Below, one piece after another: positions 4,704 through 18,867 of a DNA stretch of 32,000 bases. Position numbers and translations under genes: made by a program. The notes under the pieces were generated by a model. That model was given only the letters and a program-made list of their open reading frames with translations. It made no database searches and was not told the DNA's origin. The DNA lies in contig NC_012803.1 in the NCBI RefSeq assembly GCF_000023205.1, forward strand, positions 2,220,001 to 2,252,000, read 5' to 3'. The first letter of the stretch is position 1. Each line of letters opens with the position of its first letter. The stretch is from Micrococcus luteus NCTC 2665 (GTDB lineage Bacteria; Actinomycetota; Actinomycetes; Actinomycetales; Micrococcaceae).

Positions 4704-5247
4704 ATGCGACGGATGACGCTGCCGAGCGGGGAGTCCATCCCTGTGCTGGGCCAGGGCACCTGGGGCTGGGGTGAGGACCCCGGCCGCCGCGGCGACGAGG
4801 TCGCCGCGCTGCACGCCGGCCTCGAGCTGGGCATGACGCTGGTCGACACCGCCGAGATGTACGCCGACGGCGGCGCGGAGGAGGTGGTCGGTGAAGCATT
4901 GGCGGGTCGCCGCGACGAGGCGTTCGTGGTCAGCAAGGTCCTGCCGTCCCACGCCTCCCGTTCCGGCACGATCGCGGCCTGCGAACGCAGCCTGAAACGC
5001 CTGGGCACCGATCGGATCGACCTCTACCTGCTGCACTGGCAGGGCAGGTACCCGCTGCAGGACACCGTCGCAGCCTTCCACCAGCTCGTCGAGGACGGGA
5101 AAATCCGATACTGGGGCGTCAGCAACTTCGACCACCGGGCCCTCGCCGAGCTGCAGGACGTGCCGGGCAGCAGCGGGCTGGCCACGGATCAGGTGCTGTA
5201 CAACCTGTCGCGGCGAGGACCGGAGTACGACCTGCTGCCGTGGTGCA
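4704..5247 (+). pseudogene. Aldo/keto reductase, 5' portion, interrupted by IS insertion
   Basis: [23 protein letters not shown]...[19 protein letters not shown]...IDLYLLHW is an AKR signature. GAAGGAAG lies 8-9 nt before the ATG. Reading runs into the IS and stops after ...LLPWCK. Confidence 0.85.
5238..5247. repeat. Left copy of the target-site direct repeat CCGTGGTGCA
   Basis: Identical 10-mer at 6671-6680, immediately flanking the IS. Confidence 0.8.
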
Positions 5248-6670
5248 AGTAGTGCCCCATAGAGTGGTGTAGCGCACGGTGACTGGGCACGTCGTTCCGG
5301 ATGTGGACGCGGCCACCGTGTGATCCTTCGAGTCAACCTTCCACAGAATCCTCGAACGGAGTCATCACGATGACCGCTCCTCATATTGTCGACCCTGCCG
5401 GCCTGCTCGGCGAAGCCCTGTCCGAAGCATCCCCGGATTTGATGCGTTCGTTGCTGCAGACCGTGATCAACTCCCTGCTCTCCGCTGACGCCGACGCGGT
5501 GGTCGGCGCCGAATGGGGTAAACCCACCCCGGGCCGAGCTACCCAGCGCAACGGGTACCGGCACCGGGACCTGGACACCCGGGTCGGGACCCTGGACGTG
5601 GCGATCCCCAAACTCAGGTCGGGCACGTACTTCCCGGAGTGGCTGCTCGAGCGCCGCAAAAGGGCCGAATCCGCGCTGATCACGGTGGTCGCCGACTGCT
5701 ACCTGGCCGGGGTCTCGACCCGGCGGATGGACAAACTGGTCAAGACCCTCGGGATCAACGCGCTGTCGAAGTCCCAGGTCTCGCGGATGGCCACCGAGCT
5801 GGACGAGCAGGTCGAGTCCTTCCGTCATCGCCCGCTCGGGGAGGCTGGGCCGTTCACGTTCGTGGCCGCCGACGCGCTGAGCATGAAGGTCCGCGAGGGC
5901 GGCCGGGTGGTCAACGCCGTGGTGCTGCTGGCCACCGGGGTCAATGGTGACGGCCACCGCGAGGTCCTCGGCCTGCGGGTGGCCACCTCGGAGACGGGGT
6001 CGGCGTGGAACGAGTTCTTCGCCGACCTGGTGGCCCGGGGCCTGACCGGAGTCCGCCTGGTCACTTCCGACGCCCACACCGGGCTCAAGGACGCCATCGC
6101 CGCGAACCTGCCCGGAGCGACCTGGCAGCGGTGCCGGACCCACTACGCGGCGAACCTGATGGGCATCACCCCCAAGTCCATGTGGCCGGCCGTGAAGGCC
6201 ATGCTGCACTCGGTGTATGACCAGCCCGACGCCGCCAGCGTGGACGCCCAGTTCGACCGGCTGCTGGACTACGTCAGCGAAAAGCTGCCCGCGGTGGCCG
6301 AACACCTCGATGGTGCCCGGGCGGACATCCTGGCGTTCACCACGTTCCCCAAGGACGTGTGGACCCAGATCTGGTCGAACAACCCGGCCGAACGGCTCAA
6401 CCGCGAGATCCGGCGTCGCACCGACGCCGTGGGCATCTTCCCGAACCGGGCAGCGATCGTGCGCCTGGTCGGGGCGGTGCTGGCTGAGCAGACCGATGAG
6501 TGGGCCGAGGGCCGCCGCTACCTCGGCCTCGAGGTGTTGGCCCGCTGCCGCCTCACCACCGTGGACGACACCGAGAACGAGGTGAACGCCGAACCGGAAA
6601 CCACCCTCGAACTCAGCGCCTAACAGCACCAATGGAGGATCAGAGCGTTACACCACTACTCGGGACTTGA
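5248..6670 (+). mobile_element. Complete IS256-family insertion sequence (~1.42 kb)
   Basis: Single mutator-type transposase gene. Imperfect terminal inverted repeats share the subterminal AGTGGTGTA(G/A)CGC block (5263-5276 and the reverse complement of 6645-6658). Flanked by a 10-bp direct repeat and by the two halves of one AKR gene. Confidence 0.9.
5370..6623 (+). CDS. IS256-family (mutator-type) transposase
   Basis: MTAPHIVDPAGLLGEAL...RNGYRHRDLDTRVGTLDVAIPKLRSGTYFPEWLLERRKRAE...CRTHYAANLM...NNPAERLNREIRRRTDAVGIFPNR is the typical IS256 transposase pattern. ATG at 5370 is preceded by GAACGGAG. Confidence 0.95.
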   Translation: MTAPHIVDPAGLLGEALSEASPDLMRSLLQTVINSLLSADADAVVGAEWGKPTPGRATQRNGYRHRDLDTRVGTLDVAIPKLRSGTYFPEWLLERRKRAESALITVVADCYLAGVSTRRMDKLVKTLGINALSKSQVSRMATELDEQVESFRHRPLGEAGPFTFVAADALSMKVREGGRVVNAVVLLATGVNGDGHREVLGLRVATSETGSAWNEFFADLVARGLTGVRLVTSDAHTGLKDAIAANLPGATWQRCRTHYAANLMGITPKSMWPAVKAMLHSVYDQPDAASVDAQFDRLLDYVSEKLPAVAEHLDGARADILAFTTFPKDVWTQIWSNNPAERLNREIRRRTDAVGIFPNRAAIVRLVGAVLAEQTDEWAEGRRYLGLEVLARCRLTTVDDTENEVNAEPETTLELSA

Positions 6671-6680: not shown

Positions 6681-6970
6681 CCGACCACCAGCTGCCGGTC
6701 ATGGCGTACTCGCCGATCGAGCAGGGCCGCATCCTTGACGACACGACGCTGAACGACGTCGCGGCCCGTCACAGCGTCAGCCCCGCGGCGGCGGCCCTTG
6801 CCTGGGTGCTGCGCCGCGACTCGCTCTGCACGATCCCCAAGGCGAGCAGCCCGCAGCACGTGCGCGACAACGCCACAGCACTGGACGTGCAGCTGACCCG
6901 CGAAGACCTGGATGCTCTGGACCGTGCGTTTCCGCCCCCGAGCGGACCGCGACCACTGGAAATGCTGTGA
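6671..6970 (+). pseudogene. Aldo/keto reductase, 3' portion
   Basis: In-frame PWCTDHQLPVMAYSPIEQGRILDD...AALAWVLRRDSLCTIPKASSPQHVRDNA. Removing the IS plus one repeat copy restores a single 834-nt open frame. Confidence 0.85.
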
Positions 6971-7409: not shown

Positions 7410-7775
7410 TCAGGCGATGTCGAGGAAGGAACGGAGCTCGGCGAAGGCCGACGGCACGACGGAGTAGTGCGCCCAGCGGCCCTTCTGCTCGCGCGTGAGC
7501 AGGCCAGCGTCGACGAGCTTCTTCATGTGGTGACTCACGGTCGGCTGGCTGATGCCCAGCGGCTCGGTGAGATCACAGGCGCAGACCGAATTGCAGCCCT
7601 GAGCAGCGACATGGGACAGAAGCCGGAGACGGGTCGGGTCGGAAAGCGCCTTGAGCAAGGACGCGATCCTCTCGGCCTCGACGCTGTCGACGGGCCCCGC
7701 TGAGAGCGTGCAGCACTCCTCAGGGCCGTTCATCGTCTCGAGCCCGGCAGCTGTGATCGCGGTCGTCGTGGACAT
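7410..7775 (-). CDS. arsR: ArsR-family As(III)-responsive repressor (Corynebacterium ArsR1-type Cys arrangement)
   Basis: ECCTLSAGP near the N-terminus, AAQGC, and the HTH LGISQPTVSHHMKKL. Divergent from acr3. Confidence 0.9.
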   Translation of the reverse strand: MSTTTAITAAGLETMNGPEECCTLSAGPVDSVEAERIASLLKALSDPTRLRLLSHVAAQGCNSVCACDLTEPLGISQPTVSHHMKKLVDAGLLTREQKGRWAHYSVVPSAFAELRSFLDIA

Positions 7776-7828: not shown

Positions 7829-7857
7829 ATCCGTCGATGGAAGGTTCGGCCCCCCTC

Positions 7858-8949
7858 ATGAGTACGACCACCAAGGATGTGGAGCAGCCCCGCGTGATGA
7901 AGGAGATGTCCTTCCTCGATCGCTGGCTCCCGGTGTGGATCCTGGCCGCCATGGCAGTGGGTCTCCTGCTGGGGCGGTTCATCCCCGGCCTGAACACCGC
8001 GCTGGAGGCGGTGAAGATCGGATCCGTGTCCCTGCCCATTGCGATCGGACTGTTGGTGATGATGTACCCGGTCCTGGCGAAGGTCCGCTACGACGAGACC
8101 CGGCGTATCGGCGCGGACCGACGCCTGCTGGTGACCTCGCTGGTGCTGAACTGGATCGTCGGCCCGGCACTCATGTTCGCCCTGGCCTGGATCTTCCTGG
8201 CCGACCTTCCAGAGTACCGCACCGGCCTGATCATCGTCGGACTCGCACGCTGCATCGCGATGGTCCTCATCTGGAACGACCTCGCCTGCGGTGACCGAGA
8301 AGCAGCCGCGGTGCTGGTCGCGATCAACTCCGTCTTCCAGGTGATCGCCTTCGGTGCCCTGGGCTGGTTCTACCTCCAGGCGCTGCCATCCTGGCTGGGG
8401 CTGCCGACCACGTCGGCCGAGTTCTCGATCGGCGCGATCGTCCTCAGCGTGCTGATCTTCCTCGGGATCCCGCTGGTCGCAGGGTTCCTGACCCGCATCC
8501 TCGGTGAGCGAGCCAAGGGTCGGACCTGGTACGAGGAGCGGTTCCTCCCGAAGATCGGCTCCTGGGCGCTGTACGGGCTGCTGTTCACCATCGTGCTGCT
8601 GTTCGCCCTCCAGGGCGACGCGATCATCTCCGCACCGGGGGACGTGGCCCGCATCGCCCTGCCGCTGCTGGTCTACTTCGTCGTCATGTTCCTGGGGTCC
8701 TTCCTGCTCGGCCGCGCGATCGGCCTCGACTACGCGAAGTCCACGACCGTCGCGTTCACGGCCTCGGGCAACAACTTCGAGCTCGCCATCGCCGTCGCCA
8801 TCGGCACCTTCGGAGTCACCTCCGGCCAGGCCCTCGCCGGCGTCGTCGGCCCGCTGATCGAAGTCCCCGTCCTCGTCGCCCTCGTCTACGTCGCCCTCGC
8901 TATGGGGCGGCGCCTGTTCCCCGGCGACACCACCGCCCCCACCCGATGA
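7858..8949 (+). CDS. acr3: ACR3-family arsenite efflux permease
   Basis: MSFLDRWLPVWILAAMAVGLLLGRF...LLVMMYPVLAKVRYDE...GLARCIAMVLIWNDLA is the ACR3 signature. The start is ambiguous among ATG 7837, 7858 and 7897/7906. Confidence 0.9.
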   Translation: MSTTTKDVEQPRVMKEMSFLDRWLPVWILAAMAVGLLLGRFIPGLNTALEAVKIGSVSLPIAIGLLVMMYPVLAKVRYDETRRIGADRRLLVTSLVLNWIVGPALMFALAWIFLADLPEYRTGLIIVGLARCIAMVLIWNDLACGDREAAAVLVAINSVFQVIAFGALGWFYLQALPSWLGLPTTSAEFSIGAIVLSVLIFLGIPLVAGFLTRILGERAKGRTWYEERFLPKIGSWALYGLLFTIVLLFALQGDAIISAPGDVARIALPLLVYFVVMFLGSFLLGRAIGLDYAKSTTVAFTASGNNFELAIAVAIGTFGVTSGQALAGVVGPLIEVPVLVALVYVALAMGRRLFPGDTTAPTR

Positions 8950-8972: not shown

Positions 8973-9401
8973 ATGACCACGAAGCGCCCTTCAGTCCTGT
9001 TCGTCTGCGTGAAGAACGGCGGCAAGTCCCAGATGGCCGCCGCCCTCATGCGCCATCACGCCGGGGATGAGGTCGACGTGCATTCCGCCGGCACCCGCCC
9101 GGGCACCGCCATCAACGCCCAGTCCGCGGAGGCGATCGCCGAGGTCGGCGCGGACATGTCCTCCGCCGTCCCGCAGCCGGTCACCCCCGAGCTGCTGCGA
9201 AGCGTCGACCACGTGATCGTCATCGGCGACGAAGCCGTCATCAAACCCGTCGAGGGCATGACCGCGCCGGTCACGACCTGGCACACCGATGAGCCCTCTC
9301 AGCGCGGCATCGAAGGGATGGAGCGGATGCGCTTGGTCCGCGACGACATCGACACCCACGTCCGCAAGCTCCTGACCGACCTCACCGGCACCGCGAACTG
9401 A
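8973..9401 (+). CDS. arsC: LMW-phosphatase-type arsenate reductase
   Basis: PSVLFVCVKNGGKSQMAAALM is a P-loop-like motif. GAAGGA lies 10 nt upstream of ATG 8973. An alternative ATG at 8946 overlaps the acr3 stop. Confidence 0.85.
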   Translation: MTTKRPSVLFVCVKNGGKSQMAAALMRHHAGDEVDVHSAGTRPGTAINAQSAEAIAEVGADMSSAVPQPVTPELLRSVDHVIVIGDEAVIKPVEGMTAPVTTWHTDEPSQRGIEGMERMRLVRDDIDTHVRKLLTDLTGTAN

Positions 9402-9429: not shown

Positions 9430-10767
9430 TTGACCACCGCAACGAACTCACATCCCATTGTCGTCATCGGCGCTGGCCCCATCGGCCTTGCCGCCGCTGC
9501 CCACCTCTCTGAGCGCGGCCTGCCGTTCCTGATCCTCGAGGCCGGGACCGCGGCAGGAGCCGCGATCGCCGAGTGGGGGCACACGCGGCTCTTCTCGCCG
9601 TGGCAGCACAACCTCGACGCCGCCGCACAGCGTCTCCTCGAAGCTGCCGGCTGGACCGCACCCGACGCCGACGTTCTCCCGACCGGTCACGAACTGCGCG
9701 AGCATTACCTCGAACCGCTCGCGCAGCTTCCCCAGCTCGCCGAGTCGATCCGCTACGGGGCGCGGGTCACCGCCGTCTCCCGCGCCGGCATCGACAAGAC
9801 CCGCACCGCACGCCGCGAGGAGACCCCCTTCCTCGTCCGGATCCAGACCACCGACGGGCACAGCGAAGACGTGCTCGCCTCCGCGGTCATCGACGCCTCC
9901 GGCACCTGGTCCACGCCCAACCCCCTCGGACAGGCCGGGCTCCTTGCTCCCGGCGAGCAGCAGGCCCGCGCCGCGGGCCACATCACCGCGCCGCTGCCTG
10001 ACGTGCAGGGCCGCGACCGTGACCGCTTCGCCGGCAAGCGAGTCATGGTGACCGGTGCCGGCCACTCAGCCGCCAATACCCTGCTGGACCTCGCGGACCT
10101 GGAGGCCGACACCACCATCATGTGGGCCGCTCGCACCGCAGACCTCACCCGCGTCTACGGGGGCGGCGACCAGGACGAACTCGCAGCCCGAGGAGCGCTC
10201 GGCTCGCGACTGCGCCAGCTGGTCGACTCCGGACGCATCGCGGTCCTCACCTCCTTCACCAGCACTCGCTTCAGAGCCGACGACACGTTGACCGTCCACG
10301 CTGTGACCCCGGACGGGGAGCGAGAAGTGAGCGTCGATGTGCTGGTGCCCGCCACCGGGTTCCGCCCTGATCTCGGAATGCTCTCCGAACTCCGCCTGGC
10401 CCTGGACCCGGCCGTCGAAGCACCGTCCCAGCTGGAGCCGCTGATCGATCCCGAGTTCCACTCCTGCGGATCCGTCGAGCCTCACGGTGAGCGAGTCCTC
10501 GCCCACCCGGAGACGAACTTCTACATCGTGGGGATGAAGAGCTACGGCCGCGCCCCCACCTTCCTCATGGCCACCGGCTACGAACAGGTCCGCTCCATCG
10601 CAGCAGCCCTGGCCGGCGACCGCAAAGCAGCCGACGCAGTCCACCTCGAACTACCCGAGACCGGCGTATGCACCACCGACCTCGGCGGCGGCTGCGACGC
10701 CCCAGCCACAGCCGGCGACGCCTGCTGCAGCAGCCCGCAACTGATCGAGCTCCCCGTCGGCCGATGA
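9430..10767 (+). CDS. FAD/NAD(P)-binding oxidoreductase linked to the ars operon (ArsO-like), with a Cys-rich C-terminal tail
   Basis: TTG start 10 nt after AAGGAG (9414-9419). Two dinucleotide-binding motifs (VVIGAGPIGLAAA; VMVTGAGHSAANT). The tail is GVCTTDLGGGCDAPATAGDACCSSP. Confidence 0.8.
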   Translation: MTTATNSHPIVVIGAGPIGLAAAAHLSERGLPFLILEAGTAAGAAIAEWGHTRLFSPWQHNLDAAAQRLLEAAGWTAPDADVLPTGHELREHYLEPLAQLPQLAESIRYGARVTAVSRAGIDKTRTARREETPFLVRIQTTDGHSEDVLASAVIDASGTWSTPNPLGQAGLLAPGEQQARAAGHITAPLPDVQGRDRDRFAGKRVMVTGAGHSAANTLLDLADLEADTTIMWAARTADLTRVYGGGDQDELAARGALGSRLRQLVDSGRIAVLTSFTSTRFRADDTLTVHAVTPDGEREVSVDVLVPATGFRPDLGMLSELRLALDPAVEAPSQLEPLIDPEFHSCGSVEPHGERVLAHPETNFYIVGMKSYGRAPTFLMATGYEQVRSIAAALAGDRKAADAVHLELPETGVCTTDLGGGCDAPATAGDACCSSPQLIELPVGR

Positions 10768-10774
10768 GCAAACA

Positions 10775-10806
10775 GCGGGACGGCACGACGTTCTGTGCCG
10801 CCCCGC
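10775..10806 (+). terminator. Candidate terminator hairpin after the ars flavoprotein gene
   Basis: GCGGGACGGCAC-GACGTTCT-GTGCCGCCCCGC is an imperfect GC-rich stem just after the stop at 10767. No U-tract. Confidence 0.4.
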
Positions 10807-10830
10807 TGGGGTATAGCTTTACGAGGCGAC

Positions 10831-10862
10831 ACTGTAAGTTCAGCTCATACTGTATAGTTCAG
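10831..10862 (+). promoter_or_regulatory. Tandem ACTGTA(T)AGTTCAG motifs plus TATAGT -10 directly before cmtR
   Basis: ACTGTAAGTTCAG (10831-10843) and ACTGTATAGTTCAG (10849-10862) lie in an AT-rich island. TATAGT (10853-10858) is 7 nt from ATG 10866, which suggests a leaderless transcript. Confidence 0.45.
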
Positions 10863-10865
10863 TGA

Positions 10866-11225
10866 ATGCTGACTATCGCCTCTCGTGTTGATGTGATGAA
10901 CCGGTTGGGCCGAGCGATGGCCGACCCCACCCGGTCGCGGATCCTGATGACCTTGCTGGAACGGCCGGCGTACCCGGCCGAACTAGCGCGAGACTTGGGG
11001 CTGACCCGGTCGAACGTGTCGAACCACCTGGCGTGCTTGCGGGACTGCGGGATCGCGGTCGCCGTGGCCGAGGGCCGCCAGACCCGATACGAGATCGCCG
11101 ATGCACACCTGGCGCGGGCGCTGACTGCTCTGGTCGAGGTCACCCTCGCGGTGGATGAGAGTGCTCCGTGCATCGATCCCGCCTGCTCGCTTCCCGGATG
11201 CGACGCAGCTGGGGAGGGCGCATGA
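10866..11225 (+). CDS. cmtR: CmtR-type ArsR/SmtB-family Cd/Pb-responsive repressor
   Basis: Very close to the M. tuberculosis CmtR pattern: LGRAMADPTRSRIL...GLTRSNVSNHLACLRDCGI...GRQTRYEIADAHLARAL...APC. The sensing Cys pair C-x3-C is on the alpha-4 helix, with further C-terminal Cys residues. Confidence 0.9.
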   Translation: MLTIASRVDVMNRLGRAMADPTRSRILMTLLERPAYPAELARDLGLTRSNVSNHLACLRDCGIAVAVAEGRQTRYEIADAHLARALTALVEVTLAVDESAPCIDPACSLPGCDAAGEGA

Positions 11226-11824
11226 GCCTCACCTCGGTCTTGCAGGCGATGGGCCTGTTCGCAGCGACCAACATCGACGACATCATCGTGCTCTCCCTCT
11301 TCTTCGCGCGAGGGGCAGGCCAGCGCGGCACTACCGCCCGCATTCTGGCCGGCCAGTACCTCGGATTCGCCGGCATCCTCGGTGCCGCGGTCCTGGTGAC
11401 CATCGGCGCCGGAGCATTCCTGCCCCCGGCAGCCATCCCGTACTTCGGCCTCATCCCTCTGGGCCTCGGCCTCTGGGCCGCATGGCAGGCCTGGCGCGGA
11501 GACGATGACGACGATGACGACGAGGCCAAGGTTGCCGGCAAGAAGGTCGGCGTGTGGACAGTCGCAGGCGTCACCCTTGCCAACGGCGGCGACAACATCG
11601 GCGTCTACACCCCTCTCTTCCTCAGCGTGGAACCTCTCGCAGTAGTCGCCTACTGCATCGTCTTCCTCGCGCTCGTCGCGGTCCTGGTGGCCCTGGCAAA
11701 GTTCGTCGCCACCCGCCCCCCGATCGCCGAAGTGCTCGAACGCTGGGAGAACATCCTCTTCCCCATCGTTCTCATCGGCCTCGGCATCGTGATCCTCGTC
11801 AGCGGCGGAGCCTTCGGACTCTGA
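11222..11824 (+). CDS. cadD: CadD-family cadmium resistance transporter
   Basis: ATG 11222 overlaps the cmtR stop (ATGA). FAATNIDDIIVLSLFF...TLANGGDNIGVYTPLF are the two CadD-type repeats. A central DDDDDDDE loop is present. Confidence 0.85.
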   Translation: MSLTSVLQAMGLFAATNIDDIIVLSLFFARGAGQRGTTARILAGQYLGFAGILGAAVLVTIGAGAFLPPAAIPYFGLIPLGLGLWAAWQAWRGDDDDDDDEAKVAGKKVGVWTVAGVTLANGGDNIGVYTPLFLSVEPLAVVAYCIVFLALVAVLVALAKFVATRPPIAEVLERWENILFPIVLIGLGIVILVSGGAFGL

Positions 11825-12137
11825 CGTAGCGGCAGCGATCCAAACGGCCCCGACCGGGCGCACCCCTCTCGGTTCAGACCGCGACACCTACCTGCAGCCA
11901 GTCCTGCGTGATCGCGGCAACAAGACCGCCACGGAGCGCTGCAAAAACCCCGCCACCAAGCGAACGAAGCCACAGGGCAGGGCGTGTAAAGGGGTATACC
12001 CGCGTGGACGTGGGTCAAGAACACTCCGTGCGACCACGCAGCCCTGTCCGAAGCGCCCGCATCCCCTCAAGAATGGCGAGGCACATTCTCGCCACGGCGC
12101 TTGCCAGGTAGATGCGGACCCGTACAGGGACAGACGA

Positions 12138-12171
12138 CACGGGCCCGCCTGCCGGAGCAGACGGGCCCGTG
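12138..12171 (-). terminator. Terminator hairpin downstream of the Mn catalase gene
   Basis: Perfect 10-bp stem CACGGGCCCG (12138-12147) / CGGGCCCGTG (12162-12171) with a 14-nt loop, 25 nt after the stop. Confidence 0.55.
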
Positions 12172-12195
12172 CACTCCCTCATCGGGAAGGTCAGG

Positions 12196-13065
12196 TCACT
12201 CGCGGTGCAGCTTGTCCTGCACCGTGCCCGCCAGCTTCTCGACGCGGTTGGGCACCTCCGTGGTCCCGTAGAAACGGGAGTCCGGGTGGGTGGGCGGGGG
12301 CATGGGGACCCCCGCCGGCGGCTCGGACGAGTAGGAGAACTCGCCCTTGCCGTCCGGGGTGGGGCCTGCAGCCCACGAACCCTCCGCAGTGGCCTGACCG
12401 TCAGAGAACTCATAGTGCGTGTACGAGTGCTCCGTGGCCTCCTTCTTCTGCGGGAAGTTGCTCGGCACCGGCATCTCCTCCAGGCCGTCCTCCTGCAGCT
12501 CCTTCACAGCCGCCGCCCACTGGTTCTGGTGCATCGTGTCCCGGGCCAGCAAGAAGGAGAGCAGCTCCCGGATGCCCGGGTCATCGGTCATGTGATAGAG
12601 CCGGGCCACCTGGGTCCGCCCCTGCATCTCCGCGTTGAGGTTGGCGGTCATGTCGGCCAGCAGGTTGCCGCTGGCCGTGACATACGCTCCGGTCCACGGA
12701 TTCCCCATGCTGTCCACGGGGCGAGCACCGGCACCGGCCACGATGGCCTGCTGCAGATCGGTGCCCCCGATGACGGCGGCCACGGCCGGGTCATCCTGGA
12801 TGGCGTCGGTGGTGATCCCCACCGGGGCCTTCTCCAGCAGCTGGGCCACCATCGTTGCCAGCATCTCGACGTGACCGAACTCCTCGGCCGCCGTGCTGAA
12901 GAGCAGGTCCCGGTACTTGCCCGGAATGTGGGCGTTCCATGCCTGGAAGCTGTACTGCATGGCCACGGTGATCTCGCCGTACTGCCCGCCGATCACCTCC
13001 TGCAGCTTGCGGGCGTAGACCGCGTCAGGCTTCTCAGGACTGGAGACGTGCTGAAGCTTCTGCAT
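12196..13065 (-). CDS. Manganese (non-haem) catalase
   Basis: YARKLQEVIGGQYGEITVAMQYSFQAWN...AAEEFGHVEMLATMV is the di-Mn catalase signature. Confidence 0.9.
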   Translation of the reverse strand: MQKLQHVSSPEKPDAVYARKLQEVIGGQYGEITVAMQYSFQAWNAHIPGKYRDLLFSTAAEEFGHVEMLATMVAQLLEKAPVGITTDAIQDDPAVAAVIGGTDLQQAIVAGAGARPVDSMGNPWTGAYVTASGNLLADMTANLNAEMQGRTQVARLYHMTDDPGIRELLSFLLARDTMHQNQWAAAVKELQEDGLEEMPVPSNFPQKKEATEHSYTHYEFSDGQATAEGSWAAGPTPDGKGEFSYSSEPPAGVPMPPPTHPDSRFYGTTEVPNRVEKLAGTVQDKLHRE

Positions 13066-13147
13066 TGTGGATGTACAAGAGAGGACTCCCCTCGATCAAG
13101 TCGGATGCGTGAAGGCCCGAGGGGCTCCACGCCGGACAGCATCGACG

Positions 13148-13174
13148 CTACGCGGGTCTGACCGACCCGTGTAG
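13148..13174. promoter_or_regulatory. Inverted repeat upstream of the catalase gene
   Basis: CTACGCGGGTC (13148-13158) / GACCCGTGTAG (13164-13174), 11 bp with one mismatch and a 5-nt spacer, about 85-110 nt upstream of the catalase start. Confidence 0.25.
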
Positions 13175-13306
13175 TGCTGACCCACGCCGGAACTGCATCG
13201 GTCACCACCCGCGCCATGGACGCCAGCCCCACTCGGGGGGTGAGCGCTTTCGCCATCCTCCGCCTGCGGATGCGGCGGGTAGGTGACTCTCAGAGGCACG
13301 CGGCTT

Positions 13307-13326
13307 AAACGGTCGTTATCTGGAGT
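13307..13326 (+). repeat. Left inverted repeat AAACGGTCGTTATCTGGAGT
   Basis: Reverse complement of 17882-17901 with one mismatch; the 15-nt core is perfect. Confidence 0.8.
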
Positions 13327-13431
13327 CTGGTCAGAGGTGCCCATGACGTCCAGCACGAGGCTCAGCGGATCGGAGGTCTTCCTGGTGGACGCAGTTATCT
13401 TGGGGCCGTCTATGAAGCGGCTCGGACTCCG

Positions 13432-13821
13432 TTACCGCTCTTGGTTCGATATCCGTAGTCGCCCGAGGGCGTGTTCCAACTGTTTCCGGAGTCGCTGGTT
13501 CTCGGCGGTGAGGTCACTGACGCGCGCATTGGCAACTTCGAGGCGGCGTATCAGGGATGCATCGGTGGAACGTTGAGACGCGGGCAGCGGTACGCCGCCG
13601 GCTACTTGCCGGAGGTCGCGGAGTCGTCGGACCTCGGAGCAGAGGTCGTCCTGGGTGTAGAGCCAGGATCGCGAGACTTGCGCCTTCTCCGCGACGATCT
13701 GGAAGGTGACCGTGCCGCCCTCGCGGTCGAGGTCGCGAAGGGCCTGGGTTGCTTTGGCGCGGGTCGTCTCGTGACGTCGCTGGGCAGCGACGATCAGATG
13801 ATGGCTGTTATCGGCGTGCAT
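13432..13821 (-). CDS. Small TnpC-like / DUF6262-like protein
   Basis: MHADNSHHLIVAAQRRHETTRAKATQALRDLDREGGTVTFQIVAEKAQVSRSWLYTQDDL... ATG 13821 overlaps the upstream stop (ATGA). Its size (129 aa) and position match Tn554 tnpC. Confidence 0.75.
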   Translation of the reverse strand: MHADNSHHLIVAAQRRHETTRAKATQALRDLDREGGTVTFQIVAEKAQVSRSWLYTQDDLCSEVRRLRDLRQVAGGVPLPASQRSTDASLIRRLEVANARVSDLTAENQRLRKQLEHALGRLRISNQER

Positions 13822-15296
13822 CAGGTGCTTGCCTCGCCGTCCTGGTCGTCCTCCAACGTGCTGATGATCTGGTCGAGGTTTCCCAGGACCTGCTGGTTCA
13901 TCTCGATGAGTCGTTGCTGGCCGCGGGCTTCGGCAGCGGTGATGATCTGCACGACCTGCCGGCGGTGCTGGCGGTGCTCGGGTAGGAACTCGGAGGTGGT
14001 GATGAACATTGGGCAGCTCAGGCATGCGTTCGCGTGCGGGCAGGATTGCTGGACCGGCAGCCCGCAGAAGCCGTTGGGCAGGGCCTGGGTCGCGCGTCCG
14101 ACGCGCTGCTTGGCCCAGGCCGCCTCGGCCAAGGGTCCGTCCGGGTCGAGGGTGACCGTCTCGCCCTTGATGTTGACCTTCCGCGCGGCTTCCCAGTGCC
14201 GGCGGATCGTGGTGTCACTGAGGCGGGCGTAGTGGGCGGTCATGACGTGGGAGTCGTGGTCGAGAATCCGCCGGACCACTTCTTGGGGGACATCACGGTT
14301 GATCAGCCTGGTGCCCAGGGTGTGCCGGAAGCTGTGCGGGACGACGCGAACGGGGCGCCCGTGCTCGTCACGGATATCGCAGCGCTTGAGCCAGCTGTGC
14401 AGCGCCTTGCGGTAGACCCCGTCCCCGACCGACTCCTGGCCGTCGTCGTTGTCCGTGACTCGCGGGAAGAGCACCGGCTCCCCGCCCGGCCACCGCTCGT
14501 GCACACGGCGACGCTGCGCAGTGATGGCTTCGGCGAGGTCGGCGTCGATGGGCACCAGGGCTTCGCGTTTCATCTTGTGGTTGAGGTAGCGCAGGTAGGG
14601 CGCTCCCTCGCCGTCGTAGACGATGCAGTCGGTCGGCAGACGGACGGTGTCGGTGATGCGCAGCCCGCAGCCCATCAGGATCAGCGTGATCAGCTCATAG
14701 GCGGCGTTGTTCCACTTGGCGAGGTTGTCCGGGTTCTCCAGCTGAGCCATCACGGTTTCGCTCAGCGCGCGCGGTTGCCGGATGGCCTCCTTGGGGAAGT
14801 CCTCGCTGAAGAACATCACCGTCGAAGGCAGGGAATCGTCCCAGCCGTGCTGCCGGATGGTGGTGAAGAACAGGTTCAGCTGGCCGATCAACATGCGGTG
14901 CTTCACGGTGCCCGAGAACCGGGCGTGCAGGTGCGCGAGGTAGCGCTCCAGCAGGTCCCGGTCCAGGTCTGCCAGCCCCTGGACGGAGGGTGCCACGTCC
15001 GCGAGGAACTGCCCGAAGTGCGCGATCGCCCGGGTGCCCGAGGAGACGCTGACCACCCCGAGGCCCGTGGCCAGGCGCCAGCGGGCCCAGCGTTTGGCCA
15101 AGGCTTTGAGCCAGGGCTGCGGGATGTCCTCGAAGGTGATCCGGGCCAGCCGTCTGTCCTTGATGCCAAGTTCACGCAGCCGCCAGACGTCCTTGCCGTA
15201 CTCAGCATCCCAGCTGTTGGTCTGAAGGGACGTTCGGCGCCGCTCACGCCCGGCCCTTGATGGCTGTTCGGGCGCCAGCGGGCTCGGCGCACTCAC
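13821..15296 (-). CDS. Tyrosine recombinase, Tn554 TnpB-like
   Basis: GLRITD, HSFRHT, LDHDS and HYARL are catalytic-type motifs. C-terminal Cys cluster CGLPVQQSCPHANACLSCP. GTG 15296 overlaps the tnpA-like stop (GTGA). The longer tracked ORF extension overlaps the upstream gene and was not used. Confidence 0.85.
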   Translation of the reverse strand: MSAPSPLAPEQPSRAGRERRRTSLQTNSWDAEYGKDVWRLRELGIKDRRLARITFEDIPQPWLKALAKRWARWRLATGLGVVSVSSGTRAIAHFGQFLADVAPSVQGLADLDRDLLERYLAHLHARFSGTVKHRMLIGQLNLFFTTIRQHGWDDSLPSTVMFFSEDFPKEAIRQPRALSETVMAQLENPDNLAKWNNAAYELITLILMGCGLRITDTVRLPTDCIVYDGEGAPYLRYLNHKMKREALVPIDADLAEAITAQRRRVHERWPGGEPVLFPRVTDNDDGQESVGDGVYRKALHSWLKRCDIRDEHGRPVRVVPHSFRHTLGTRLINRDVPQEVVRRILDHDSHVMTAHYARLSDTTIRRHWEAARKVNIKGETVTLDPDGPLAEAAWAKQRVGRATQALPNGFCGLPVQQSCPHANACLSCPMFITTSEFLPEHRQHRRQVVQIITAAEARGQQRLIEMNQQVLGNLDQIISTLEDDQDGEAST

Positions 15297-16480
15297 AGTC
15301 GCACCTCTCGGCCGGTGAACCAACCCGCTTCCTCCAGCGCCTTGCGAGCGTCCTCGGCGCTCAGGTGCCCGTAGACGGCGGTGGTGGTGGTGATGTCGGC
15401 GTGGCCGAGGAGCTTGGAGACCACCTCGATCGGCACACCGTCGCGCAGCATCCGGGTCGCGGCGGTGTGGCGGTACCAGTGCGGGTCGAAGTCGATCCCG
15501 GTGCGCCGCCGCAGACGCTTGACCAGGTCGTAGACGGCCGTGTAGGTCAGCGGGTGACCGTGGGGTCGGCCCCAGAGGTTGACGAAGACGTAGTCGGAGT
15601 CTAGATCGTCGTACTCCAGGTGAAGGTAGTCGGCGTAGAGCCGGACCAGCTCCGCGCTGACCGGCACCGTCCGCGGTGCGCATGACTTGGAGCGGGCACC
15701 GTTGTCATTGACCCGGCGCTGGACCGTGATCTGGGACTCGGCAGCGGCAATGTCCTCATGCCGCAGCCCCAGCGCCTCACCGATCCGCATCCCGGTGTCG
15801 AACAGCACCGCGAACAAGAACCGGTCCCGCAGATGATCACAGGCATCGAGGATCGTCTGCACCTCGGCGGCGGAGAGCACGCGCGGGAGCTTGCTCTGCG
15901 CGCTCAGCACGATGGCCCGCCGAGCCTGCGGTTTGCCCTTGCTGATGTGGTGCAAGAACGGCTTCCACCCCGAGCCACGACCTCCGGCCGGCTGCCACGC
16001 CCTGAGCAGCTCTCCGAGGTCGACGCCGTGGCGCGCGGCGTGCTGGTAGAACGCGCTGAGCGCGGAGAGTTTCCGGTTGACCGTGGACTCAGTGCAGTGG
16101 TGCTCCACCGACGGCAACACCGGTACCGTCCCGTCGCGCAGCTGCGGCGGTCGGCGTAGCCAGGCGACGAACTCGGCGACGTTCTCCAATCGCACCTCAC
16201 GCCAGCCAAGGCCTTGGACGCCGAGGAACACGAACCAGTCCTTCAAGTCGTGAGCGTAGGCCTTAACCGTGTTCGACGACCGCTCGATCTGGGTCAAGTA
16301 CGCCAGATACCGCTCGATCGGAGCCACCGGGGCACCGTCATCACCCAGCACCGTCCACGACTCCACGGCATCGACCGGGGAGAGCACCCGCTGAACGAGT
16401 AAGCCCCGGTCCGTGCGGCTGCACGCGTCGTTTCGTAGTGTCAGCCCCCGACTGCCCAATGAAGATTGGGCGTCCTGCAT
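15293..16480 (-). CDS. Tyrosine recombinase, Tn554 TnpA-like
   Basis: SAM-like N-terminal domain (IERYLAYLTQIERSSNTVKAYAHDL), then GMRIGEAL, HWYRHT, LLGHADI and YGHL. ATG 16480 overlaps the SDR stop. An alternative TTG lies at 16510. Confidence 0.85.
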   Translation of the reverse strand: MQDAQSSLGSRGLTLRNDACSRTDRGLLVQRVLSPVDAVESWTVLGDDGAPVAPIERYLAYLTQIERSSNTVKAYAHDLKDWFVFLGVQGLGWREVRLENVAEFVAWLRRPPQLRDGTVPVLPSVEHHCTESTVNRKLSALSAFYQHAARHGVDLGELLRAWQPAGGRGSGWKPFLHHISKGKPQARRAIVLSAQSKLPRVLSAAEVQTILDACDHLRDRFLFAVLFDTGMRIGEALGLRHEDIAAAESQITVQRRVNDNGARSKSCAPRTVPVSAELVRLYADYLHLEYDDLDSDYVFVNLWGRPHGHPLTYTAVYDLVKRLRRRTGIDFDPHWYRHTAATRMLRDGVPIEVVSKLLGHADITTTTAVYGHLSAEDARKALEEAGWFTGREVRL

Positions 16481-17235
16481 CAGCTCGACGTATCGACCGT
16501 GTGGAGCCAAGCGTCAACATCCGGCCCGAGGACGGTGGCGTTGTCGGGAGCCAGGAGAACTCCCTCTGACAGCGCCGGCAGCGCAGGAGCGGTGACGCGG
16601 ACGGGGCGTGCGTCACCGAGCCGGTTCAGCAGCTTGGTCGTGAGCTCGGGCAACCGCACCACCTCTGGCCCGGTGACCGTCCTGGTCGCTGTGCCTGCGC
16701 GCCCCAGCGCAGCCTCGACCAGAACATCAGCAACTGCATCGGCAGCCACGGGCTGAACGAGCCAGTCCTCTACCCGAACCTCATCGTCCTCGAACGTGGT
16801 GGCCGATGGGTTGGTAGCGAACTCGTGCCACTGGGTGGACTTCACAACTGTCGACGGGACATCGCTGGCGGCCACGATTTCGTCTTGGGCGCGCTTGGCG
16901 AGGTAGTAGGGAAAGTCGTCGAAGACGGGATTGTCGACTCCACTGATGGATAAGAACACGAGGTGTCCGACCTGCTGGGCGGCACACGCTTCGACGACGT
17001 TGCGCGTAGCCGAAGTGAGGGCCTCGTGCAGGCCGACAGTCTCATCCGGCGGGAAAGCGTTGGAGGCGTCGATCGCGACGTCGACTCCTTCCAGCGCCTC
17101 GCGCAGGCCTTCCCCGGTGATCAGGTCCACCCCGGTAGCGCGTGAGACCTCAACGGGGCTGATGCCCCGGTCTTTGAGCTTGGCGACGGTGCGGGAGCCG
17201 GCGGTTCCCGTCGCTCCGATGACAGCGATCTTCAT
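16480..17235 (-). CDS. NmrA-like / atypical SDR NAD(P)H-binding protein
   Basis: MKIAVIGATGTAGSRTV is a Rossmann motif. 251 aa. ATG 17235 overlaps the Rrf2 stop (ATGA). Confidence 0.85.
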   Translation of the reverse strand: MKIAVIGATGTAGSRTVAKLKDRGISPVEVSRATGVDLITGEGLREALEGVDVAIDASNAFPPDETVGLHEALTSATRNVVEACAAQQVGHLVFLSISGVDNPVFDDFPYYLAKRAQDEIVAASDVPSTVVKSTQWHEFATNPSATTFEDDEVRVEDWLVQPVAADAVADVLVEAALGRAGTATRTVTGPEVVRLPELTTKLLNRLGDARPVRVTAPALPALSEGVLLAPDNATVLGPDVDAWLHTVDTSS

Positions 17236-17732
17236 GGTTGATGCTCTCCTTCTGGATGCTTGCGGTCGATGAACTCGGACAGTTGCTGACGGCTGTGGGC
17301 ATCGACACCGGCGGCCAGGTCAGTGATCGAAACCTGGGACAAGCTGGACCGCCAGGCGTCTTCGGCTTGTCTCATGGCTGAGGCGATGCGGCAGGGACCG
17401 CTGGCCTTGATCTCAGCCGAGCGTTCCTTGAACAACCCCTGACACCTAATCTCGGTGCAGCGGAAAATCGGACCGCGACCATCGAGGGCGTCAACGACGT
17501 CAGCCAGGGTGATCTCCTGGGCTGGGCGTGCCAACGCGAAACCTCCGGCTTGACCGGGAGTAGAGGTCACCAGGCCGTTAGCGGCCAGCTTCTGAAGGTG
17601 CTTGTTCAGGTATGTCGGGGACAGCCCGTACGCCTCGGCCAGTGCTGCGCTCGGCACCGGTTGGGTCGATCCGAACTGTTCCAGCACCACCAGGCAGTGG
17701 GCCGTCCACTCCACACCGTTCGGCAACTGCAT
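17232..17732 (-). CDS. Rrf2-family transcriptional regulator with three Cys
   Basis: MQLPNGVEWTAHCLVVLE...LAEAYGLSPTYLNKHLQKLAANGLV is a winged helix. The Cys cluster is FRCTEIRCQG...GPCRI. ATG 17732 is preferred over GTG 17741. Confidence 0.85.
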   Translation of the reverse strand: MQLPNGVEWTAHCLVVLEQFGSTQPVPSAALAEAYGLSPTYLNKHLQKLAANGLVTSTPGQAGGFALARPAQEITLADVVDALDGRGPIFRCTEIRCQGLFKERSAEIKASGPCRIASAMRQAEDAWRSSLSQVSITDLAAGVDAHSRQQLSEFIDRKHPEGEHQP

Positions 17733-17749
17733 ACTCAACACGCTACACC

Positions 17750-17774
17750 ATTCTGGATAGAGGATGTCCAGGAT
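17750..17774. promoter_or_regulatory. Inverted repeat just upstream of the Rrf2 gene (candidate operator)
   Basis: ATTCTGGA-TAGAGGATG-TCCAGGAT, 8-bp arms with one mismatch, starting 18 nt from ATG 17732. Confidence 0.35.
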
Positions 17775-17881
17775 GCTGACGTGCCCCGATCAGACGGTTC
17801 GTACTGCTGGCTCCAGCCTCACGACGTGGACGCCGGTCTACGACACGAAGCGGCAGGTCAGGGACTATTTCCTGCCGACGC

Positions 17882-17901
17882 ACTCTAGATAACGACCGTT
17901 T
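17882..17901 (-). repeat. Right inverted repeat ACTCTAGATAACGACCGTTT
   Basis: Reverse complement of 13307-13326 with one mismatch. Confidence 0.8.
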
Positions 17902-18091
17902 GTGGCACGCGCCCCAGATGTCTCCGGCAGTCTCCCCACGTCGCCTGCTAGGCGGTGTGACTTGCGCCGATGAATGTCCGGTATCTCGCACAGATCGCTG
18001 TCCGGCATAACCTCAGCTGGAGAAGTTGGGGCGGGTGAGTTGTTGCCCTCCGCCCTGGTGTCGGAACCGCATCATGCCGGATCGTGGGCGC

Positions 18092-18457
18092 ATGAGAGTG
18101 ACAGTCCGTGGAAACCGCTTGGTGAGCCTAGGGGCTCGAATCACTGTCGACGTCCCTGAGGGTCCGACGCCAGAGGTGCGGATTCACGCGCCGTTCTGCA
18201 GGCGAGCGATTCCCGTCTCGGAGATCTCCGACATCACTTCAGCCAGTGATGACGGCATGAACCACGGACTCCTCAACTGGTTCGTCACGGGCCGCGCTTC
18301 AGCCCCCGGCGGGGTCCGCATCAACAACGGCGGTCGGGCCCGCGTCACGATCCGGACCCGTGACGGGTCGCTCTTCAACGTCGTAGTGGACGATCACGAC
18401 CAGGCGAGCCGCCTGGTTGAGGATGTCCGGTCGATCAGAGCACGCTCATCCGGCTAA
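18092..18457 (+). CDS. Hypothetical protein
   Basis: Open frame with plausible composition (MRVTVRGNRLVSLGARITVDVP...RVTIRTRDGSLFNVVVDDHDQASRLVEDV). No family recognised. Start is ATG 18092 or 18074. Its stop TAA lies inside repeat copy C. Confidence 0.45.
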   Translation: MRVTVRGNRLVSLGARITVDVPEGPTPEVRIHAPFCRRAIPVSEISDITSASDDGMNHGLLNWFVTGRASAPGGVRINNGGRARVTIRTRDGSLFNVVVDDHDQASRLVEDVRSIRARSSG

Positions 18458-18468
18458 ATCGGTCGTTA
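18435..18468 (+). repeat. Third, direct-orientation partial copy of the element-end motif
   Basis: CGGCTAAATCGGTCGTTA (18451-18468) versus CGGCTTAAACGGTCGTTA (13301-13318), 16 of 18 by my count. Both are preceded by TCAGAG(G)CACGC. Confidence 0.6.
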
Positions 18469-18867
18469 GTGACGAGGGGCCCCGCCATGCGCCGTGTGCG
18501 CCACCTCCGGCCCTGCCCGCCCGCCGCACGGCTCGCCACAACCAACCCGCTAGAGCGGCAGCCGTCCGTACGTTTCGAGCGAGCCCTGGGGTGCGCGGGG
18601 GCGCCCACCTGGACACCCAGTGTCACGCCGACCGGATCCCGCCCGATACGCGAAGAGTCCACCGCGCGTCGTGTGGAACCTTGCCTGCATCTCGACAGCA
18701 AAGGCCCTTGCCCACCGATCCGCATCGTGACACAGTTCACCCCATGATGCAGCAGCAGTGACGCCGTGGGTCCGACGACCCACCACCGGCCTCCCCGCGC
18801 GCCCGTCTCGAGCACGGCTCGACGGGTGCCTCTGCGCCCACCCCTTTCTTCAGAAAGCAGTCACCGC

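Follow-up and report, generated by a model that had tools for sequence, protein, structure and literature searches.

A segment of the Micrococcus luteus NCTC 2665 genome, contained in the 32,000-nt stretch of contig NC_012803.1 analysed here (the window, positions 2,220,001 to 2,252,000), is very probably a transposon that inserts site-specifically and belongs to the Tn554 family, in its actinobacterial branch. Over 16,870 compared positions the window shows 3 differences from LS483396.1, a record assigned to M. luteus NCTC 2665 by PMC12098357. The element comprises positions 13316-17892 together with one extra 6-bp hexamer, for a net insertion of 4,583 bp. Coordinates are positions in the window, and the genes of the element lie on the minus strand. 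Two repeats described earlier from the sequence, A and B, are the terminal inverted repeats of this actinobacterial Tn554-related transposon. The evidence comes from contigs in which the same site is occupied or empty, from a second insertion of the same element and from 80 related tnpABC loci (contigs and loci are labelled L001 and so on), the loci having been collected by a scan of one genome per species and being nearly all from Actinomycetota.

Terminal repeats, empty site and target

Copy A (AAACGGTCGTTATCTGGAGT, 13307-13326) and copy B (17882-17901) are reverse complements with a single G/A mismatch, matching at 19 of 20 positions when the hexamer and flank are included. A repeat search found them within the longest inverted repeat of the region, of 37 nt and 78% complementarity (13290-13326 against 17882-17918). 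Chance levels were estimated from 100 shuffles per motif, with counts taken over the whole window. The 15-mer AAACGGTCGTTATCT, allowing up to three mismatches, occurs only at A and B (0.14 expected; two occurrences were reached in 2 of the shuffles), and CGGTCGTTA has only the three occurrences at A, B and C, where 0.06 is expected and no shuffle reached three. The A/B pair is far beyond chance. Copy C (CGGCTAAATCGGTCGTTA, 18451-18468) covers the stop codon of an open reading frame (ORF) ending at 18457; A and C have CGGCT(T)AAA(C/T)CGGTCGTTA in common, and both are preceded by TCAGAG(G)CACGC. Outside A and B, GGCACGCG stands in direct orientation at 13295-13302 and 17904-17911, 4 nt and 2 nt from the 20-nt repeats. 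It is notable only for this position. On re-reading, the coordinates and sequences given for A, B, C and GGCACGCG in the preliminary description are all correct.

Occupied and empty contigs of the window site were found by exact-protein look-up with the Mn-catalase encoded at 12196-13065 (minus). Contig L087 carries the LysR, GNAT, 121-aa ORF, Mn-catalase and Cad genes in the order of the window, without the element, and reads gtgactctcagaGGCACGCGgcttaaaCGGTCGtttgtGGCACGCGccccagatgtctcc at the site; L083 agrees. In both, the empty site is GGCACGCG-GCTTAAA-CGGTCG-TTTGT-GGCACGCG, that is GGCTTAAA-CGGTCG-TTTGTGGC, and the 30-bp attB of the window is GTGCCACAAACGACCGTTTAAGCC. The L087 sequence is exactly the one foretold, ahead of the look-up, by a model with a single target hexamer; the preliminary description had expected TCTCAGAGGCACGCGCCCCAGATGTCTCC, where the empty contigs read TCTCAGAGGCACGCGGCTTAAACGGTCGTTTGTGGCACGCGCCCCAGATGTCTCC instead. 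Comparison of occupied and empty sites thus shows that the insertion added 13316-17892 and six bases. Where the empty site has a single CGGTCG, the occupied site shows CGGTCG at one junction and CGACCG at the opposite one. There is no true target duplication, and one junction hexamer is foreign to the target. The proposal that A and B bound a recombinase-encoding mobile element is borne out. An interrupted gene was also considered at this site; the reconstructed sequence has no convincing ORF across it, and the target is therefore intergenic.

Beyond the site itself, L083 (GCA_023147175.1, 1-186) matches the window to about 50 nt on the tnpA side of the target (~17950) and is then unrelated to the contig end, so the target neighbourhood differs between strains.

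Nucleotide homology to L001, L004, L005 and a Kocuria rosea plasmid ends at 13307-13309, exactly at A; the other homology limit of the same four lies at about 16396-16399, at the tnpA start. Both ends carry an 11-bp inverted arm with the consensus TTATCTRGAGT, each adjoining a hexamer CGRYCG. In 28 related loci, CGNNCG-TTATCT is found inverted around tnpABC, so that the motif is not a dispersed REP-like repeat unlinked to recombinases, an outcome raised earlier. The base directly outside CGNNCG varies freely among relatives, suggesting that TTATCTRGAGT is the arm of the element and the hexamer a junction sequence. Asymmetric hexamers stand as direct repeats, CCATCG in L019, L030 and L043 and CGACCG in L072; on these four loci, and L095 likewise, we rejected the hexamer as a part of the inverted repeat. 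Inside the tnpC-side end, GGAC-N3-GTTATCT occurs at the same distance as the subterminal repeat of the window in L001, L004, L005, L006 and L088, and cargo-less relatives carry CGATCGTTATCG some 113 nt in from the end. The tnpA-side end module matches the corresponding end of L006 at 72%, and its GTGGAC..GTCCAC palindrome is conserved in L001, L002, L005, L006 and L088. A search of the window against Rfam gave no match, and a promoter and terminator scan gave nothing informative.

The same element with its cargo is present at a different locus in L095, 96.6% identical over 4,601 nt and with an identical TnpC. There, read so that tnpA is on the + strand, it is flanked by CTCGCCACAAA and TTTGCGGCGCTC and has CGACCG at both junctions; the empty site of the window, turned the same way, reads GTGCCACAAA-CGACCG-TTTAAGCC. 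These independent targets have a 17-nt core, GCCACAAACGACCGTTT, in common, and the TTTGTGGC flank is also found in that of L095. A-rich and T-rich flanks also surround further members of this clade, L004, L005, L006, L009, L016, L072 and L088. The preferred target is a near-palindrome, CANAAA-CGRYCG-TTTNTG, which resembles the element's own joined ends, AGATAA-CGRYCG-TTATCT; the empty target of the window reads CACAAA-CGACCG-TTTAAG, and the pattern of target-type sites is AAACGRYCGTTTGTGGC. Exact-protein look-ups with TnpC and Rrf2 returned the same M. luteus site, except for L095 and an odd contig, L093, while a search with the exact tnpA-side end for further insertion sites gave 0 matches. 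In L093 (JGI 3300053491) the tnpC-side junction with identical flank occurs twice, inverted, at 1076 and 3539. The copies enclose two Mn-catalase genes (289 and 293 aa), and past them comes another tnpBA set, partly disrupted; the arrangement reflects either a genuine inverted duplication or a chimeric assembly.

Read in the orientation of the element, copy C is GTCACTAA-CGACCG-ATTTAGCC and fits the empty site on both sides of the hexamer, with a local score of 29 against 19.9 ± 2.5 for shuffles (maximum 29 in 300). The TCAGAG-CACGC upstream of C also matches the target. Copy C has no TTATCTRGAGT arm and is unoccupied in every contig seen; it may be a paralogous look-alike of the target and possibly a secondary site. 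The 121-aa ORF at 18092-18457, which has no Pfam or NCBIfam match, is bracketed by attB and C, two target-like copies of about 30-50 bp.

Genes of the element and affiliation with the Tn554 family

The element encodes five genes in the order rrf2, NAD(P)H-binding, tnpA, tnpB and tnpC, with consecutive reading frames overlapping by 1-4 nt (Table 1). Inspection of the translations shows the R-H-R-Y motifs of tyrosine recombinases in both TnpA (GMRIGE, HWYRH, AVYGH) and TnpB (GLRITD, HSFRH, AHYAR). NCBIfam has no Tn554-specific model and gave only sub-threshold Xer and integron matches for the proteins of the element.

Alignment with L001, L002, L004-L007, L009, L016 and L088 shows that the canonical tnpA start of the relatives (ATG-x-GTN-CAG-CG) is CTT/TTA in the window, where tnpA as called begins at the ATG at 16480, and this start shares bases with the stop codon of the NAD(P)-binding cargo gene. 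The lost ATG and the short overlaps suggest that the transposase genes rely for their expression on the cargo operon and its Rrf2 regulator. With an Rrf2-type sensor at its head, the operon could make these genes respond to a redox, NO or Fe-S signal. The DNA upstream of tnpA differs in each relative, being an ABC transporter and a two-component system in Kocuria, which places the passenger region between the tnpA-side end and tnpA.

Table 1. Features of the element and its surroundings, with related loci inserted in IS256-type genes
Feature	Coordinates	Strand	Remarks
Host flank, tnpC side: GGCACGCG then GCTTAAA	13295-13309	+	Contiguous with the other flank, unchanged, in L087 and L083; outside the element
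Junction hexamer CGGTCG, tnpC side	13310-13315	+	Same as the single empty-site hexamer, hence the target's own
Terminal arm TTATCTGGAGT, tnpC-side end	13316-13326	+	Inner part of A; homology end; arm conserved across the family
Subterminal arm repeat GGACGCAGTTATCTTG	13387-13402	+	Orientation as terminal arm; candidate accessory recombinase-binding site
tnpC	13432-13821	-	129 aa, DUF6262, Pfam PF19776; 33% identical to Tn558 TnpC, E 3e-17; gene call in L081
tnpB, long tyrosine recombinase	13821-15296	-	491 aa, PF00589; 28% identical to Tn558 TnpB fragment, E 1e-23
tnpA, tyrosine recombinase	15293-16480	-	395 aa as called, PF00589 and PF02899; 37.5% identical over 92% to Tn558 TnpA
NAD(P)H-binding (NmrA/SDR-like) cargo	16480-17235	-	251 aa, PF13460; region non-homologous in close relatives
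Rrf2-family regulator, cargo	17232-17732	-	166 aa, PF02082, TIGR00738; heads the five-gene run; coordinates from L081
tnpA-side end module	17805-17881	-	Includes palindrome CGTGGACGCCGGTCTACGAC (17825-17844); may hold accessory sites and the promoter region
Terminal arm, tnpA side, ACTCTAGATAA on + strand	17882-17892	-	Inner part of B; 10/11 positions as in the other arm
Junction hexamer CGACCG, tnpA side	17893-17898	+	Two central bases differ from target CGGTCG, hence foreign ("brought-in")
Host flank, tnpA side: TTTGT then GGCACGCG	17899-17911	+	Contiguous with 13295-13315 in empty sites; outside the element
Copy C, unoccupied target look-alike GGCTAAAT-CGGTCG-TTAGTGAC	18451-18468	+	At the stop of the 121-aa ORF 18092-18457; in the empty allele
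Cad	11222-11824		
ArsR-like	10866-11225		
Pyridine nucleotide-disulfide oxidoreductase	9430-10767		
LMW phosphatase/ArsC-like	8973-9401		
ACR3/SBF	7837-8949		
ArsR-like	7410-7775		
IS256-homing locus L014	7875/11848		Position in the locus
IS256-homing locus L030	7874/11846		Position in the locus
IS256-homing locus L037	7878/11862		Position in the locus
Further IS256-homing loci			L012, L013, L015, L017-L019, L022-L024, L026, L029, L034-L036, L041, L043, L050, L059, L075

As comparator we used an element on the S. epidermidis plasmid p14-01514, which from its gene content (tnpA, a tnpB region with cfr, tnpC, NAD(P)H oxidoreductase and fexA) is Tn558. All three transposition proteins of the window are homologous to those of Tn558, and the order tnpA-tnpB-tnpC on one strand is that of the Tn554 family of Bacillota (Tn554, Tn558, Tn553 and Tn6674); DUF6262, the domain of the third protein, has been annotated as TnpC (PMC11947258). 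The likeness extends to insertion, which in the Tn554 family is site-specific, causes no target duplication and leaves a 6-bp junction at each end, one of them possibly foreign (PMC12486829). The high target specificity of that family is also seen here, in the 17-nt core and in the insertion of at least 23 of the 80 loci at one codon motif. The target itself differs, being a GATGTA core in radC for the Tn554 family and a near-palindrome mimicking the joined ends for the element of the window. The preliminary description had called the architecture unlike Tn554. This holds for the inverted repeats, which are far clearer than those of Tn558, but not for the behaviour that defines the family: the lack of a target duplication and the foreign 6-bp junction are Tn554-like.

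In the passages of Van Houdt et al. 2012 (PMC3414803) that treat them, actinobacterial Tn554-related tnpABC sets are defined as a class in which a short and a long tyrosine recombinase are adjacent, with or without a TnpC relative. Identical or similar copies occur both on chromosomes and on plasmids, the genera being Mycobacterium, Streptomyces, Rhodococcus and Arthrobacter. The element of the window is a member of the class so described: the 80 related loci lie almost entirely in Actinomycetota, and a 90%-identical core is found on the Kocuria rosea plasmid. In those passages the class is set by gene content and attB is speculative; the ends, the hexamer, the empty site and the target come from the present analysis.

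Two further groups of elements resemble that of the window. The strand-biased circularizing elements of Gammaproteobacteria also have two tyrosine recombinases, one of them long, and a TnpC-like protein, Srap; they have 13-19-bp imperfect inverted repeats, joined ends with a 6-bp spacer, a 6-bp footprint and few selected targets (PMC10214605). Their four core genes are intA, tfp, intB and srap, whereas the window has no tfp (CDS2)-like gene and belongs to another phylum, and the likeness is drawn from the published description. We rejected this identity because no tfp gene lies between the recombinases of the window. RIT elements likewise have tandem tyrosine recombinase genes between terminal inverted repeats, with three catalytic recombinases and 34-bp repeats (PMC10214605). 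This identity was rejected as well, the window having only two PF00589 proteins and a non-catalytic DUF6262 protein, with arms of 11 bp.

Mechanism and competing explanations

The boundaries, the one target hexamer, a hexamer at each junction of which one is foreign, the site specificity and the presence/absence polymorphism are observed. Homology to Tn554, Tn553 and the strand-biased circularizing elements suggests the following course. TnpA and TnpB, with TnpC assisting, would form a circle by joining the arms, its 6-bp spacer being a copy taken from one of the flanks. The recombinases of the circle would then exchange strands on either side of a matching target hexamer, and the carried spacer would be left at one junction. 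Work on Tn554 and Tn553 (PMC12486829) and on the strand-biased circularizing elements (PMC10214605) has documented both the brought-in att and a circular intermediate, its spacer measuring 6-7 bp.

Several observations weigh against placing the element, and this mechanism, in the Tn554 family. The 11-bp arms and subterminal repeats of the window differ from the very weak terminal symmetry of Tn558, whose ends TTAAACATAG and GCTAAGTATT show about 6/9 symmetry as judged by eye; the classical Tn554 trait of absent or weak terminal repeats is thus not found in the element. The TnpB of Tn554 has about 630 aa, against 491 aa in the window. Cargo lies upstream of tnpA and is translationally coupled to it, whereas in the Tn554 family it lies downstream of tnpC. 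The foreign hexamer is on the tnpA side, while Tn554 keeps the target's att there and has the brought-in att at the far end. Among relatives, L037 and L020 suggest a polarity opposite to that of the window, with no clear rule for the family, a discrepancy that could reflect mutation or collapsed assemblies; in L015 both hexamers encode Ala-Ile, which makes this locus uninformative on polarity. With such polarity the strand-biased mechanism may not apply as published. The arm-hexamer-arm sequence CTCNAGATAACGNNCGTTATCTNGAG, expected of a circle or tandem, had 0 matches in metagenome contigs. Mobility, finally, is deduced from sequence, that is from the presence/absence polymorphism and the second site. 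On terminal repeats the contrast is softened by a description of Tn554 itself with imperfect inverted repeats (PMC10214605).

Among other explanations, classical conservative integration of the phage type or the integrative and conjugative element type, with double-strand exchange over a 6-bp overlap, true excision that restores the empty site and a differing hexamer produced by heteroduplex segregation, all in place of a Tn554-type copy-out with a brought-in spacer, appears unlikely but is the most serious competitor. The two hexamers differ in the window, L001, L005, L020 and L037, and are identical in most relatives and in L095, as this explanation would have it; the side of the foreign hexamer is inconsistent between loci, as expected of unbiased segregation, and empty alleles exist, although perhaps they were never occupied. 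Classical integrases normally disfavour exchange across an overlap with two central mismatches, which counts against it, and the element has no Xis-like gene. The TnpABC set is moreover homologous to that of Tn554/Tn558, with a documented brought-in att and biased circle spacers (PMC12486829). That B is instead a secondarily recruited end, the ancestral one lying at about 16489-16502 (ACACGGTCGATACG, minus) and the Rrf2 and NAD genes having been captured by end-skipping, seems quite improbable. A degenerate CGGTCG-ATACGTCGAG, with 6 of 11 arm positions, does lie about 100 nt upstream of the tnpA homology, and MAFFT aligns it with the terminal repeat of cargo-less relatives; the spacing in cargo-less elements is 132-134 nt, however, the cargo-bearing L001, L002, L004, L005, L006 and L088 have no such relic, and a ~95-nt end module beside B is conserved in cargo-bearing relatives, which argues that B is an authentic end.

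The readings offered in the preliminary description for GGCACGCG and for copy C fare far worse. An inverted-repeat transposon with an 8-bp duplication of GGCACGCG would fit the two direct copies just outside the 20-nt repeats, but both copies, 18 nt apart, are already in the two empty-site contigs, so that the octamer is neither a duplication nor a crossover core; it is also common in this G+C-rich DNA (4 found against 8.0 expected in the window), and spacings of 4 nt on one side and 2 nt on the other do not accord with a duplication. This reading has next to no probability, and the exchange is placed in or next to the CGGTCG hexamer between the copies. No more credible is GGCACGCG as crossover core or a 5.2-kb element with A and C as attL and attR, B internal and inversion possible. 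The sequence common to A and C and their shared upstream motif had suggested such an element. Only the A-to-B segment is missing from the empty allele, which keeps C and all that lies between B and C, the 121-aa ORF among it; this retained DNA belongs to the host, and A and C are thus not attL and attR. The likeness of C also crosses the hexamer into the B-side flank (TTAGTGAC against TTTGTGGC), pointing to an uninterrupted target and not an end, and C lacks the arm.

Relatives, targets in IS256 genes and genomic setting

The hexamer rule also holds in relatives inserted in genes. When the element and one hexamer are removed, full Mutator/IS256 transposases are restored, with PF00872 spanning 13-374 (L014), 8-377 (L030) and 23-360 (L037) of 379; the same removal in L001, the closest relative (TnpA 90% identical), restores a DyP peroxidase N-domain (profile 2-146/146). 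In L014, L030 and L037 the junction falls within the conserved T-N-x-I-E-S-L-N motif, and at least 23 of the 80 loci lie at IS256/Mutator transposase codons for [T/S/N]-N-x-I-E-[S/R]-[L/T]-[N/F]; both orientations occur, and the transposases concerned are of at least three divergent types. The pattern resembles that of a transposon family homing to the gene of another transposon. That the actinobacterial Tn554 branch as a whole is a "transposon of transposons", a large share of its members homing to C(G/C)ATCG in N-x-I-E-S-L-N codons and so splitting and inactivating IS256 genes, with the clade of the window re-targeted to an intergenic near-palindrome and carrying its cargo upstream of tnpA, is a tentative proposal that falls a little short of an even chance. 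Nothing was found in the literature on the ends, target rule or IS256 homing of the actinobacterial class, within a literature coverage that is incomplete, so that this is absence of evidence only.

Some relatives add observations of their own. Cargo-less elements measure about 4.0-4.1 kb (L007, L016, L017). In L007 (7875/11892) both flanks are the downstream half of an IS256-type target (GTTCACCGACT and AGTCGCTGAAC) and thus come from two target copies, suggesting recombination between element copies or inversion. L088, on the Kocuria rosea plasmid NZ_CP127860.1 (6004-12828), has the 90%-identical tnpABC core and the same type of end. Its cargo consists of an ABC transporter permease and ATPase, a histidine kinase and a response regulator; immediately beyond the tnpA-side end comes an erm 23S rRNA methyltransferase gene, and immediately beyond the opposite end a serine recombinase and TnpV.

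The window itself contains an IS256-family transposase gene (417 aa, 5370-6623, +), which splits an aldo/keto reductase gene into fragments at 4713-5252 and 6701-6970. L083 has the uninterrupted reductase (277 aa), making this a second insertion polymorphism in the window. The motif of this transposase is SNNPAERLN, with PAE and not PIE, and no Tn554-like element lies in it.

As to the wider setting, G+C content is about 62-70% over 10000-18500 and about 74-76% beyond 19000, with copy C near the shift, and gene mapping shows that metal/metalloid resistance-type genes extend left to about 7400 (Table 1). This stretch is a probable acquired island, with the transposon at its right edge. Base composition was set aside as a marker of the element, which sits in the larger island of ~65% G+C and is not singled out by it.

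With these results the type strain of a model actinobacterium has a transposon whose limits are precisely drawn and whose insertion is polymorphic, together with an empty site that experiments can use, a further natural target and a look-alike site that stands unoccupied. They also set out the structure of the ends and the targeting rule of the actinobacterial Tn554 branch, apparently a first, which opens the way to automated delimitation of such elements and their cargo. The element offers a G+C-rich test system for the transposition mechanism of Tn554 and the strand-biased elements, especially for the origin and polarity of the carried 6-bp spacer, and the homing of its relatives to an IS256 motif represents a clean case of one mobile element specialising on another.

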